Shown here piece by piece: positions 1,423 through 22,102 of a DNA stretch of 64,000 bases (within the stretch, counting starts at the first letter, position 1; the number at the start of each line of letters is the position of its first letter). The DNA is from Oligoflexia bacterium (GTDB lineage: Bacteria > Bdellovibrionota > UBA1018): the NCBI GenBank assembly GCA_963758495.1, contig CAVWVI010000003.1:1440001-1504000 (forward strand), read 5' to 3'. The notes beneath the pieces are model-generated. The model was not told the DNA's origin and did not search any database. It saw nothing but the letters and a program-made list of their open reading frames with translations. A program made the position numbers and the translations under genes.

Positions 1423-2848
1423 TTACAATAGATTTTGTATCGCCTCTACAGCTTCTCGAATGACTGGATCATGATCCATGCCTGCTTCAATTTTACTACA
1501 TGCGTGTAAAATGGTGGTGTGATCTTTGCCGCCAAAATAACTACCAATCTCCTTGAAGCCAAGACCCGTGTACTTTCGCATGAGATACATCGCAATTTGT
1601 CTCGGAAGTGCTACAGCTCGAATTCGAGTAACAGACTTTAGGTCTTGAATTCTCAAATGGTAGTGCTTCGCCACTGCTTGTTGAATCGATTCGATTGTAA
1701 AATTAGACCCTTCATCAGGAACGGCCGTTTTCAACTCATGTTTTGCCATCTCGAGAGAAATTTCAGCTCCAGTCAATGATGCTTGAGCTTGAAGCCGAAT
1801 TAAAACACCTTCTAACTCACGAACATTAGACTTAATATAAGAAGCTAAAAAAGTCGCGACATCATCTGGAAGATAGATATCATCTCGCTCTGCTTTCGCT
1901 TTAAGAATCGCAATTCTGAGTTTCAATTTCGGGAGGGCTAATATCGGCGACTAAACCCCACTCAAATCGAGTCCTCACACGCTCTTCCAATCCTTCAATT
2001 TCCTTCGGAGGCCGATCACTTGAAACCACGATTTGCCTCTTTGAGCTATGGAGTGCATTAAAAGTATGAAAAAACTCTTCCTCACTGGTGTTTTTGCCTG
2101 CAATAAATTGAATATCGTCGATCAAAATCATGTCGTAACTGTCGCGATACTTCGCTCTAAATTGTGGCATCCGCCTATGCTGTAAAGAATCAATGAGCTC
2201 ATTCACAAATTTTTCAGCTGAAAGGTAGGCCACCCGTGCATTTGGGTTTTGTGCGAGCAAGCGATTTCCAATTGCATGAAGTAAATGCGTTTTTCCTAAT
2301 CCAGGAGGGCTATAAAGGAAAAGGGGATTGTATTGGCGTGCAGGCTGTTCAGCTACCGCAACTGCAGTTGCATGCGCAAATTGATTACTCGCACCCACAA
2401 CGAAACTATCAAAAGTATATCGAAGATCCGGATAATCGTTACCCGATCGAAGACTGGTATGCACTACCCCAGGCGCTGAAGTGACTAATGGAGTGCCGCC
2501 TGAGGACTGAGGGGCGGATATCTGAAAGTCTTGTTCGATCAGGTTAAATTTAAAATCCTTTATAATTTCTTTCACTTGAAGCTGTAGCTCACAGGGTGAG
2601 CCTGCCACTTGTGCAAGAGCGCCCTCAATGGCTTTTTGATAATGATCTCGCACCCATTGGGCCGAAAAGTCATTAGGGGCAGCCATGACTGCTTTATGGC
2701 CATTTTGAACTTGCTCTATCTCCAGCAATTCCAATGGATAGATCCACGCATGGAACTGGTTGGGTACCACCGTCTGCTCTAAAAGACGACAAGCAGCCTG
2801 CCATAATTCGGGCAGTTGCCCTGTGTTGAAGTGAATTGAATTATTCAT
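1423..2848 (-). CDS. dnaA: Chromosomal replication initiator DnaA, split by a +1 frameshift near 1918-1921
   Basis: YNPLFLY..PGLGKTHL Walker A, LIDDIQF Walker B, EEFFHTFN in ORF 1901..2890; SNVRELEG and FGGKDHTT in ORF 1423..1926; ATG at 2848 taken as start. Confidence 0.95.
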
Positions 2849-2946
2849 AGCCGAACTAATTGAACTAACATGAGGGCTTCTACTTGACAATGAGCCTTCT
2901 CTCCGATAATTCCTTTTGATCTTATTTTTTTGGAGCTTTATTTAAT

Positions 2947-9611: not shown

Positions 9612-9640
9612 TTTTGATATCCCAATTTGGGATATCAAAA
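9612..9640. repeat. Perfect 29-bp palindrome TTTTGATATCCCAA-T-TTGGGATATCAAAA, same family as the array at 20626-21119
   Basis: 14-bp arms read directly; + frame reads LISQFGISKMESHGERQNPPF, resembling the ORF6N LxSQFxxSxxxHGGRR region. Confidence 0.85.
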
Positions 9641-9925: not shown

Positions 9926-10410
9926 TGTGGATAAGTCTGTGGATAAGTGTGTGGATAACTTTTCGTCAAAAAACTTATCCACAAGTTATCCACAGGGTTA
10001 TCCACAAGTTATCCACATCTTACACAAGATGTTTGTCTATAATATCAATACCTTATAAAGTTATCCACATCTTACACAATTTCTATCCCGAATGGAATAT
10101 TTGATTAGTTAACTTTATTACTAGGTCTTTGTGGATAACTCTAAAAAATGACCTCAAAAAATGGCTGTTTTTAGTCAATACATGACTACCCATATCAGGT
10201 AAAAAAGTTATCCACAAAATCGTGTGGATAAGTGTGTGGATAACTTTTTTTTAGGGGTAAAATAAAGTTATCCACAAAATTGAAAAAGTTATCCACAGAC
10301 TTATCCACAAAGTTATCCACATGGTTTCTATATTAATTTCAATAAGTTAAGTGAGTTATCCACTTATCCACACGCCCTACTACTACTACTGTCTTAATAT
10401 ATATATAATT
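9926..10410. promoter_or_regulatory. oriC: Chromosomal replication origin oriC
   Basis: 17 perfect TTATCCACA/TGTGGATAA boxes counted between 9926 and 10372; last box followed by CGCCC, TACTACTACTACT trios (10378-10390) and an AT-rich run; directly upstream of dnaN. Confidence 0.95.
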
Positions 10411-19876: not shown

Positions 19877-20185
19877 ATGAATTTTCGTAAGACCCTGTTA
19901 TTAATTGGGACTTTAGTAATGACTTTTGGCGCTTCGTTCGCTTTTGCTGATGAAGCAGCAGCGGCACATGGAGCAGGTATGGGTTCACTTGGAGCCGCAT
20001 TAGCTATCGGTATTGCAGCATTCGGTGGAGCTCTCGGACAAGGTAAAACAGCTGCAGCAGCCTTGGAAGGGATTGGACGTAATCCATCTGCTCAAAATAA
20101 AATTTTCGTACCTATGATTATCGGTCTTGCCTTGATCGAATCTCTTGTTTTGTACGCATTCGTTATCGCTTTCGTCAAATACTGA
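19877..20185 (+). CDS. atpE: ATP synthase F0 subunit c with N-terminal extension
   Basis: GGALGQG, EGIGRNP loop, LALIESL. Confidence 0.96.
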
Positions 20186-20351: not shown

Positions 20352-20423
20352 AAGCACTACGCGGAGTCCTGTTGCGCCGGGAATCCAAATCTTTACGGCA
20401 CAACAGGACTCCGTGTAGTGCTT
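20352..20423. repeat. 72-bp GC-rich inverted repeat (28-bp arms, 2 mismatches, 16-nt loop)
   Basis: AAGCACTACGCGGAGTCCTGTTGCGCCG ... CGGCACAACAGGACTCCGTGTAGTGCTT. Confidence 0.9.
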
Positions 20424-20480: not shown

Positions 20481-20570
20481 TTTAAGGACGCAATTTGCGA
20501 CCTTAAAGAAAAGTGAACATGGTAACTATCAGAAATACTTATCTTTTACGGAGATGAGTATGATTCTTTA
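20481..20570 (+). pseudogene. Decayed ORF6N-domain fragment containing a palindrome (20481-20507)
   Basis: TTTAAGGACGCAA-T-TTGCGACCTTAAA; frame from 20482 reads LRTQFATLKKSEHGNYQKYLSFTEMSMIL*, resembling LNSQFPISSTEHGGRRYLPYIFTEHGATML in the downstream gene. Confidence 0.65.
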
Positions 20571-20625: not shown

Positions 20626-21119
20626 AACTTGAGGTCGCAAATTGCGACCTCAAGTTGCGATGCGTTATTTATAGTCTTAGATATCAAAACTTGAGATGCC
20701 AATTTGGCATCTCAAGTTGTAATTTTCTCGGCGTTCATTGGGTTTTACATTTAAAATCAACTAGTTATATAGGAAATCTTGAGATGCCAATTTGGCATCT
20801 CAAGTTAGATTTACCTAAATTTGCCTACCAATTTTTATTTTAAAATTCATATATACATAAACTTGAGGTCGCAAATTGCGACCTCAAGTTGCGATGCGTC
20901 ATTTGTTATTTCGGGTACAACTTGAGGCGCCAAATTGGTACCTCAAGTTGTAAGATTCTAAAATTTAATAAAAATTCACATTTAAAATCAATTAGTTAGA
21001 TAATAAAACTTGAGGTGCTAAATTGGTACCTCAAGTTTTATAAGCTTTGGAAGTTCAAGTTTTGGGGTGTTAATTTAAGATTTCAAAAAACTTGAGGTCG
21101 CAAATTGCGACCTCAAGTT
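20626..21119. repeat. Array of seven 31-bp palindromes (consensus AACTTGAG-N4-CAA-W-TTG-N4-CTCAAGTT) with 28-57 bp AT-rich spacers
   Basis: Copies start at 20626, 20688, 20776, 20860, 20919, 21007 and 21089; spacers 31, 57, 53, 28, 57 and 51 bp. Confidence 0.95.
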
Positions 21120-21184: not shown

Positions 21185-22102
21185 ATGCAATTAACAATTA
21201 GCGAAATTAGGCGACGGATCTACTTTATGCGTGGTCAGCGTGTAATGCTGGATGTCGACTTAGCAAAATTCTACGAAATTTCAACTAAGCGTTTAAATGA
21301 GCAGGTAAAGAGAAATATCAGTCGGTTTCCGGAAGATTTTAGATTTCGACTTACAGAAAATGAATGTGATGAATTGAATTCACAATTTCCAATTTCAAGC
21401 ACTGAGCATGGAGGAAGGCGATATTTACCTTATATTTTTACGGAGCATGGTGCCACAATGTTAGCAAGTGTTTTGAATACTGACCGGGCCATTCAAGTAA
21501 ATGTAACTATTGTTCGTGCTTTTGTTCAAATCCGTGAGTCCTCAATCCAAAAAGAGCTAGCATTAAAAGTAATGACACTAGAGAAACAGTACACTGAGGT
21601 CTCGAAAGTTATCTCCGATGTTCATTTAAAACTTATGGCCCTGACTTCGCTACAAAAGACTAATTCTTTTAAAACTCGTTACAATAAAGCTGACTTAAAA
21701 GAGCAAGAACATGTCTCGCTTGATACTAAGTTAGAGACACTGACTCTCGTTACAAAGGAAGCTAAAAGAGATTTCAATAACGCTAACGCTATCAATGAAG
21801 TGCCTCACAATCTTATAATCGGCGAAATTCAAAAAGCTGTAGCAAGATATTATAATGTAAAAATTCAGGATTTACGAAGTACAACTCGCATCAAGGTAAT
21901 CGCATTGGCCAGACAAATCGCGATGTATTTAGTCCGAAAACATACGGGGATGAGTTTTAAAGACATTGGAACTCATTTCGGTGGTAAAGATCACACAACA
22001 ATTATGCATGCTTGTAGTAAGGTTGAAGTGAGTATAAAAATAGATGCTTCAATTCGGAACGCTATAGAGTCGATTGAAGGGGTTTTGTCAAAAAATATTT
22101 AA
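21185..22102 (+). CDS. ORF6N (KilA-N-like) domain protein fused to a DnaA C-terminal (domain IV) HTH
   Basis: N-terminal IYFMRGQRVMLDVDLAKFYEISTKRLNEQVKRNISRFPEDF..GGRRYLPYIFTEHGATMLASVL; C-terminal 87 aa align gap-free to this window's DnaA domain IV (53/87 identical by hand); alternative TTG start at 21092. Confidence 0.9.
   Translation: MQLTISEIRRRIYFMRGQRVMLDVDLAKFYEISTKRLNEQVKRNISRFPEDFRFRLTENECDELNSQFPISSTEHGGRRYLPYIFTEHGATMLASVLNTDRAIQVNVTIVRAFVQIRESSIQKELALKVMTLEKQYTEVSKVISDVHLKLMALTSLQKTNSFKTRYNKADLKEQEHVSLDTKLETLTLVTKEAKRDFNNANAINEVPHNLIIGEIQKAVARYYNVKIQDLRSTTRIKVIALARQIAMYLVRKHTGMSFKDIGTHFGGKDHTTIMHACSKVEVSIKIDASIRNAIESIEGVLSKNI

Follow-up and report, generated by a model that had tools for sequence, protein, structure and literature searches.

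The window analysed here, 64,000 nucleotides of genomic DNA from an Oligoflexia bacterium (contig CAVWVI010000003.1), contains a 1-kb gap between atpE, which ends at 20185, and a gene that starts at 21185 and encodes an ORF6N domain fused to DnaA domain IV. Positions 20626 to 21119 of this gap (494 bp) hold seven 31-bp palindromes of three types, A, B and C, all at the coordinates given beforehand in an earlier note on this DNA (Table 1). Pairing ranges from 13 to 15 of 15, and the three types differ at up to 7 of 31 positions. As the earlier note had described, three arm positions distinguish types A and B, each change being mirrored in the opposite arm; their centre base differs as well. The units also translate to the peptide motif as claimed, the second C copy doing so with a stop in the forward frame. 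The 25-bp core of the ORF6N family, with its invariant CA...TG and an A or T at the centre, is complete in six of the seven units and restricted to one arm in the C copy at 21007. The 3.66-Mb genome contains 15 perfect odd palindromes of 12 pairs, 5 of which lie within these 494 bp.

Table 1. Features of the array, the adjacent gene and the oriC region, in positions of the window.
Feature	Position	Strand	Remarks
Type A, copy 1	20626..20656	.	15/15 pairs; predicted cognate site of the adjacent protein (K35/R36/E39 class)
Type B, copy 1	20688..20718	.	15/15 pairs; R39 class, non-K35
Type B, copy 2	20776..20806	.	14/15 pairs
Type A, copy 2	20860..20890	.	15/15 pairs; opens the duplicated block
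Type C, copy 1	20919..20949	.	Imperfect, 13/15 pairs; K35/R39-like class
Type C, copy 2	21007..21037	.	Imperfect, 13/15 pairs; stop codon in the motif (forward) frame
Type A, copy 3	21089..21119	.	15/15 pairs; 65 bp from its end to the ATG at 21185
Eighth, degenerate A-class palindrome	20482..20506	.	11/12 pairs; beyond the array bounds first given
IHF consensus, perfect match	20755..20767	+	Spacer 2; within the duplicated block
IHF consensus, perfect match	20986..20998	+	Spacer 5; within the duplicated block
ORF6N - linker/long helix - DnaA domain IV fusion, 305 aa	21185..22102	+	PF10543 E 1e-33; PF08299 E 2e-29; 1j1v E 2e-18
Predicted recognition helix, codons 34-43 (K35, R36, E39)	21284..21313	+	Structure model and covariation
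Decayed in-gene palindrome slot (LNSQFPIS)	21374..21398	+	8/12 pairs; 7-11 differences (of 25 positions) from each unit
DnaA domain IV coding part	21824..22024	+	Profile and 1j1v matches
Lone family palindrome, perfect	9612..9640	.	oriC edge, first DnaA box ~290 bp away; surrounding 1.5 kb free of ORF6N genes
oriC	9926..10372	.	DnaA boxes, 17 perfect and 1 near-perfect; the fused domain IV likely has its target here

The unit order A-B-B-A-C-C-A reflects the tandem duplication of a block about 230 bp long, and the two blocks align end to end. Two of the three pairs of corresponding spacers are homologous (spacers 2 and 5, z 8.2; spacers 1 and 4, z 4.4; spacers 3 and 6, z 0.7). The three A copies are identical and perfect despite their strongly diverged spacers. 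The units share no helical phase, their spacing ranging from 5.6 to 8.4 turns. Promoter-like matches in the array region number 8, against 7.7 expected by chance, and the last A copy lies close to the ATG of the gene. Spacers 2 and 5 each hold a perfect match to the IHF consensus. Two or more such matches arose in 34 of 20,000 shuffles, but both represent one duplicated event, and at least one match arose in 1,013 of 20,000 (about 5%). A match of this kind is present at only 4 of 27 loci with palindrome units outside the gene (external units), and we regard it as a weak lead.

CRISPR and REP/RAYT systems likewise consist of short palindromic repeats with unlike spacers; no enzyme of either kind lies near this array. 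A CRISPR array was rejected on the three repeat types, the uneven spacers (28-57 bp) and the homology of pairs 1/4 and 2/5, and also on the position of the genome's single cas1 and 25-repeat array, which has a different repeat and lies more than 900 kb away. That array runs from G000:C3 546,552 onward, with its 25 repeats around cas1. A REP/RAYT element was rejected because 14 of the 15 family members in the genome lie beside two ORF6N genes, so that the family is not dispersed, and because the one PF01797 (Y1 transposase) gene is on another contig and has no family palindrome there. The 15 members comprise eight at this array, six at the paralog described below and one at 9612, and on this distribution the family palindrome accompanies ORF6N genes rather than being scattered through the genome. 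The earlier note had named a match to a known CRISPR repeat or REP family, or the lack of similar arrays at other ORF6N loci, as grounds for abandoning its reading; we found no such match, and similar arrays are present at other ORF6N loci.

Upstream of the array, at positions 20352-20423, lies one of about 54 copies, dispersed over the genome, of a 72-bp hairpin repeat whose arms often show mirrored changes. Another copy lies 1.3 kb upstream of the paralog, and none matched in the flanks of the single Y1 transposase gene. We regard this repeat as MITE- or REP-like and as separate from the palindrome array. The genome has five reverse transcriptase genes, three with frames of 578-579 aa and one about 1.2 kb from the Y1 transposase gene.

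A structure model of the adjacent protein shows a winged-helix-like unit, whose second helix bears K35 and E39, and after it a long helix (residues 100-131). A Foldseek search with the model returned nothing at E 0.001, and the ORF6N part gave no sequence match to solved structures. The winged helices of pSK1 Par, RacA, Mbp1 and Dachshund show a weak likeness to the N-terminal unit (Z 4.1-6.2, middling values, with an unrelated protein at the top). A homodimer prediction for residues 1-161 scored 0.24, against a mark of 0.42, and is uninformative either way. PHROG anti-repressor families match the protein. Its domain IV retains the DHTT signature and the upstream arginine of 1j1v. As the earlier note had read it, the palindrome in the gene's motif slot has decayed. 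The slot folds as RNA no better than shuffled sequences (z 0.12), all seven of its differences from type A fall at G or C positions, and in the model it forms a helix end and a low-confidence loop.

The palindrome inside ORF6N genes and the predicted recognition helix

We compared the motif slot across ORF6N genes for which DNA was available, 54 from relatives, 85 from metagenomes, 21 from viral contigs and one from another genome. This set was ranked by likeness to the adjacent protein, so that kin within it are not independent; removal of near-copies had reduced it from 177 to 161 genes, and genes below 90 bits or with an unparsable helix (three such) were dropped. In 155 of these 161 non-redundant genes, the slot forms a 25-bp palindrome in which 9 or more of the 12 pairs are present. 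In 150 genes at least 10 pairs are formed, a level reached in none of the 161 in a control window of the same genes. The mean in-gene pairing is 11.2 and falls to 5.4 after synonymous recoding of the same peptide, and five genes carry the palindrome in another frame and hence encode a different peptide. Because the palindrome exceeds what synonymous recoding leaves and appears in another frame in these five genes, the conserved element is a DNA palindrome, with the peptide motif as its by-product. The array units spell the motif because the same palindrome family resides inside ORF6N genes. Thus the association between palindrome and motif noticed earlier is real, but its direction has to be reversed. 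The C-G pair of the CA...TG core is kept in all 155 in-gene sites, and the centre base is A in 77 genes and T in 76. In the literature consulted, main texts that are mostly openly accessible, we found no description of a palindrome inside ORF6N genes.

The bases of the in-gene palindrome covary with residues of the predicted recognition helix. Mutual information peaks between residue 39 and base 9 of the half-site (1.41 bits), and a separate signal joins residue 35 to bases 5 and 6 (0.39 and 0.50). Counted over half-sites, E39 goes with G in 109 of 110, Q39 with A in 105 of 116, R39 with C in 45 of 46, K39 with C in 26 of 26 and L39 with T in 10 of 10. Both halves obey this rule in 146 of 155 genes, and the remaining 9 break it. 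Within the E39 class, G at base 6 is found in 37 of 38 genes with K35 and in 4 of 17 without it; within the Q39 class, the corresponding counts are 22 of 22 and 5 of 36. Since the link between K35 and G at base 6 persists inside each residue-39 class, the two channels are independent and combine freely. The left-arm change that separates E from Q genes is synonymous, serine being encoded by TCG in 53 of 53 E genes and by TCA in 50 of 51 Q genes, and all five other-frame genes follow the residue-39 rule. The helix is therefore linked to the DNA and not to the peptide.

A tree built with the helix and the motif masked implies 68 changes of residue 39 and 62 of base 9. Independent pairs on well-supported branches agree in 5/5, 6/6, 4/4 and 1/1 cases, of which only 6/6 reaches p 0.03. 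About 90 bp separate the helix from the site within one gene, so block exchange could add to the covariation. The pairings seen here, when arginine or lysine is read with G and glutamate with C on the opposite strand, and glutamine with A and leucine with T, correspond to the common amino acid-base contacts. In MerR-type domains the second helix enters the major groove (PMC11500499). The sister fusions L301 and P0004 (support 98/90) carry Q and R, respectively, at residue 39, a specificity switch between close relatives. At four loci (L003, L011, L027 and L173), ORF6N genes or domains stand in tandem; they are mostly of unlike helix classes, and each has its own matching in-gene site.

With respect to the array, the outer nine bases of type A have 40 in-gene occurrences, 38 of them in genes with a K-R-x-x-E helix, as in the adjacent protein. 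The adjacent gene has lost its internal copy, and its K35/R36/E39 helix predicts exactly type A. The half-site of type B has three in-gene occurrences, all with G35 and R39. By these correspondences, types B and C are assigned to the R39 class and are predicted to be unfit for the adjacent protein. No R39-class gene or remnant was found in the assembly, which is 92% complete.

External sites, the paralog and the replication origin

For external units we used a final set of 168 genes, in which an external site was scored as matching on base 9 alone. The internal copy is lost in 7 of the 168, and 5 of these 7 have a matching external site, compared with 12 of the 161 that keep the internal copy. 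The two lossy genes without such a site have merely 96 and 2 bp of upstream DNA present; among genes with at least 150 bp of flank on both sides, a matching external site is found in 4 of 4 that lost the internal copy and in 12 of 138 that kept it. A fully matching unit is present at 16 of the 27 genes with external units, against 9.4 after helix shuffling (p 0.002), and absent from 11. In 12 of the 16 the matching site starts no more than 140 bp upstream of the domain start, and 18 of 43 external units fit the neighbour's helix on neither arm. A scan of contigs with the full protein returned 80 loci, one of them ORF6N and the rest DnaA-domain matches; the latter served as a negative control and contained no family palindrome in 410 kb. 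A pattern search over 75 family genomes placed 21 of 23 loci at an ORF6N gene or fragment, and the reversed pattern gave one match.

Loss of the internal copy is concentrated in fusions with DnaA domain IV, where it affects 5 of 9 genes, compared with 2 of 159 stand-alone genes, kin among them not being independent. The motif is degraded in all 8 fusions represented by protein only, and fusions account for 3 of the 5 loci with at least three external units. Four of the 9 fusions keep a single internal site and have none or one external copy. At L312 the array lies mainly or wholly downstream of the gene, as it does at the paralog. This paralog, the only other ORF6N gene of the genome, is also a DnaA domain IV fusion, and its array lies about 57 kb from the one described here. 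It carries R35/V36/Q39, with two Q-type units upstream and four immediately downstream; inside genes, the half-site of this array occurs 11 times, always with Q39 and never with K35. Its internal copy has been lost as well (4/12 pairs).

The oriC region lies in the same window, 3 kb from the GC-skew minimum of the contig, and the two fusions of this genome are 11 and 46 kb from it. Neither array contains a DnaA box, so the target of domain IV should lie elsewhere. A lone, perfect palindrome of the family is found at the oriC edge; its half-site is absent from every in-gene site of the set. In genomes G086 and G118, fusions lie directly beside oriC, within 1 kb of a DnaA-box cluster, where this genome has the lone palindrome only. 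Where position could be judged, which leaves out G087, G096 and L305, four fusion genes in three genomes lie within 50 kb of a box cluster and a fifth at about 52 kb. Fusions are patchy in occurrence, being present in 5 genomes among about 125 of the class. The fused domain IVs do not pair with the DnaA of their own hosts on a tree, and capture of the host's own dnaA by each fusion is unsupported; a single origin of the fused domains is compatible with the tree, though not demonstrated by it (p-AU 0.14). The host dnaA (1423-2890, minus strand) is interrupted near 1,920 and occupies two reading frames, possibly through an assembly error.

Mixed specificity classes recur at other loci. L306 has one E-type and two R-type units upstream. 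In genome G005 (L345 1400-1530), a cluster of E-, L- and half R-type units stands with no ORF6N gene within 1.5 kb, and a suspected tRNA beside it was not found. The same atpE-uvrA interval in G118 holds a K35/R39 fusion of another lineage, in reversed orientation, whose three C-like units face atpE; the tree gave no support for its being an orthologue of the present gene. Taken with the fusions directly beside oriC in G086 and G118, these arrangements suggest that ORF6N genes have turned over at these places, and that B and C were left by, or serve, another specificity class.

Fragments and duplications of related genes were also seen. Between oriC and an intact R39 fusion in G086 (L311 2359-2641), a Q-type palindrome is followed by a stand-alone DnaA domain IV fragment, which looks like the remnant of a deleted fusion gene. 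A truncated domain IV fragment also lies beside a small HTH_3 gene at L314 2096-2481 (G000:C3 ~1,535,600-1,536,000), there without a palindrome. In a fusion gene of G118 (L305 3790-3890), the in-gene palindrome is duplicated in frame, 75 bp apart.

Comparison with known systems and possible roles of the array

The 434 and P22 repressors form repressor-operator pairs for which a recognition-helix code and a helix swap are reported. The present locus resembles them in its palindromic site, in helix residues that track bases and in the several sites placed before the protein's own gene; as in an operator array, dyad-symmetric sites adjoin an HTH-type gene and the site sequence follows the recognition-helix residues. 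It is unlike them in that the standard ORF6N site is located some 200 bp into the gene itself and is translated as part of the protein, in that the array mixes specificity classes, and in that no divergent promoter pair is evident. A comparison can also be drawn with phage HK022 Roi, since Roi, like this protein, matches Phage_pRha weakly and with scores short of the cut-off. HK022 Roi is reported to bind within its own gene, at a site that adjoins one for IHF. However, Roi ends in an ANT domain, the ORF6N alignment showed no profile similarity to it (probability 0.3%), and roi contains no long palindrome. To DnaA domain IV (PF08299, 1j1v) the homology is clear, with the DHTT signature kept, although the fusion lacks an AAA+ domain.

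The single-protein centromere systems offer a further parallel. Both pSK1 Par and RacA combine a MerR-type winged helix with a coiled coil (PMC11500499, PMC4914108), and Bacillus RacA binds clustered palindromes near the origin (PMC4914108). The model of the present protein places a long helix after a unit that is winged-helix-like, and its sites are clustered on the replicon, here 11 and 46 kb from oriC. The structural likeness of the N-terminal unit is weak, both to pSK1 Par (8csh; VIA Z 4.9, rmsd 2.1, 53 residues), which ranks below unrelated structures, and to RacA (5i41; Z 4.1, rmsd 2.6, 56 residues). Unlike in these proteins, the C-terminal part is here a second DNA-binding domain and not a membrane or DivIVA anchor, and the fusion is patchy. 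By analogy, the array would act like a repressor-operator pair with a helix code and some traits of single-protein centromere systems, though it can be assigned to neither class.

On balance, we favour the reading that the type A copies are double-stranded docking sites for the adjacent ORF6N protein, which probably damps its own gene. It builds on three observations, namely that the palindrome is a DNA element conserved inside nearly all ORF6N genes examined, that its bases covary with residues 35 and 39 on the same helix, and that this gene has lost its internal copy and has a helix that predicts type A. The helix would read the site in the major groove, with one protomer of a dimer on each arm, and the external A copies would stand in for the lost internal copy and act as an operator. 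Types B and C may be sites of R39-class proteins, from an earlier resident or from a gene missing from the assembly, and would have been duplicated along with A in the tandem duplication. Template switching, in line with established knowledge, would supply mirrored changes that keep the arms symmetric. The option of a multi-site operator, raised in the earlier note, is thereby supported and made specific, with A fitting the adjacent helix. The arrays of the paralog and of L312, being mainly or wholly downstream, are unlike an operator positioned at a promoter.

A different role, which we consider unlikely on present evidence, is that of a tether resembling a centromere, in which the fusion would hold the array by its ORF6N end and the DnaA boxes of oriC by domain IV. 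The locus might then be looped to the origin, or the protein stored there, with effects on firing, segregation or gene persistence. Such a role would suit the retained domain IV signature, the more frequent loss of the internal copy and the multi-unit loci among fusions, their degraded motif, their proximity to oriC where it could be judged, the absence of DnaA boxes from the arrays and the downstream position of two of these, as well as the weak fold likeness to pSK1 Par and RacA and the IHF-consensus matches. However, patchiness argues against a core function, the genome already has ParB and a parS-like site, the fusions that keep a single internal site have few or no external copies, and the two IHF matches amount to a single event. 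It is improbable that the whole array is a functionless residue of sites from passing ORF6N genes, which slippage would have multiplied and which nothing but template switching would keep symmetric. Inverted repeats with imperfections are corrected by template switching (PMC5941160), which also inverts spacers (PMC8604942). Mirrored changes therefore need no RNA structure, and the nearly equal use of A and T at the centre fits this process. The non-cognate B and C units, the imperfection of C, the lone unit beside oriC, a place taken by a fusion gene in relatives, the mixed cluster in G005 with no ORF6N gene close by and the unrelated R39-class fusion of G118 in the same interval all agree with such an origin. 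The three A copies do not, being identical and perfect amid diverged spacers and matching the resident helix, and neither does the loss of internal sites in the company of matching external ones. A residual origin thus probably holds for C, perhaps for B, and not for A.

Two further explanations assign the units a role other than as double-stranded binding sites for the protein. That they act as hairpins, in the form of RNA, extruded single-stranded DNA or cruciforms recognised by the protein or another factor, we consider very improbable. Each unit folds well as RNA (-16 to -22 kcal/mol, z -7 to -9), but so would any palindrome. The innermost pair of the in-gene palindrome is intact in only 106 of 155 sites, as in a small loop, and mismatches compatible with G-T pairing are in excess on the antisense strand (39 against 19 on the sense strand, 116 distinct sites, p 0.01); this excess, for which we offer no explanation, keeps a DNA hairpin alive as an idea. 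In contrast, in-gene mismatches show no excess of sense-strand G-U pairs, so that the structured-RNA array proposed earlier gains no support from the mismatch pattern. The balance of A and T at the centre indicates no preferred direction, and the mid-stem bases follow the helix residues, which by established knowledge fits a major-groove reading of B-DNA better. A search of Rfam gave 19 matches, all below gathering scores and mostly to miRNA hairpin models. Least credible, and hardly to be expected, is a role of the units as silent donor cassettes from which gene conversion or reverse transcription would rewrite the LNSQFPISS slot. The units do read in frame as motif variants, and the motif varies among relatives. 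Yet a profile built from in-gene flanks gives their 15-base flanks scores of -16 to +2, compared with +12 and +8 for the gene slot, and the units therefore have no homology arms; the slot matches no unit, and one unit has a stop. We likewise rejected a diversity-generating retroelement (DGR) or gene-conversion system, as there is no template homology beyond the variable bases, as the changes between slot and type A at G and C only are the opposite of adenine-specific DGR change, and as the nearest of the five reverse transcriptase genes lies 157 kb away. The place of the slot in the structure model, at a helix end and low-confidence loop, also speaks against a diversified motif, and this suggestion of the earlier note is left unsupported.

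Returning to ORF6N proteins as presumed readers of their own palindrome, a wider scenario can be put forward tentatively. ORF6N proteins would be self-addressed DNA adaptors, every gene carrying the site for its own product under a small, reprogrammable code of helix residues and bases. One lineage would have captured domain IV, moved its address to an array and come to tether the locus to the DnaA boxes of oriC; the mixed array and the lone oriC site would then record a succession of origin-hitchhiking genes that differed in their addresses.

The ORF6N domain is very widespread yet hardly treated in the literature, and we found no described target for it. The covariation provides a testable target for any ORF6N member from two residues and represents a natural two-position recognition code. 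The present locus can be viewed as a natural experiment, in which two paralogs have lost the internal site and have external sites of the type that the helix predicts, so that the role of the DNA is separated from that of the peptide. If the fusion does grip oriC as well, accessory genes would have a new route by which to attach themselves to, or tune, an origin of replication.
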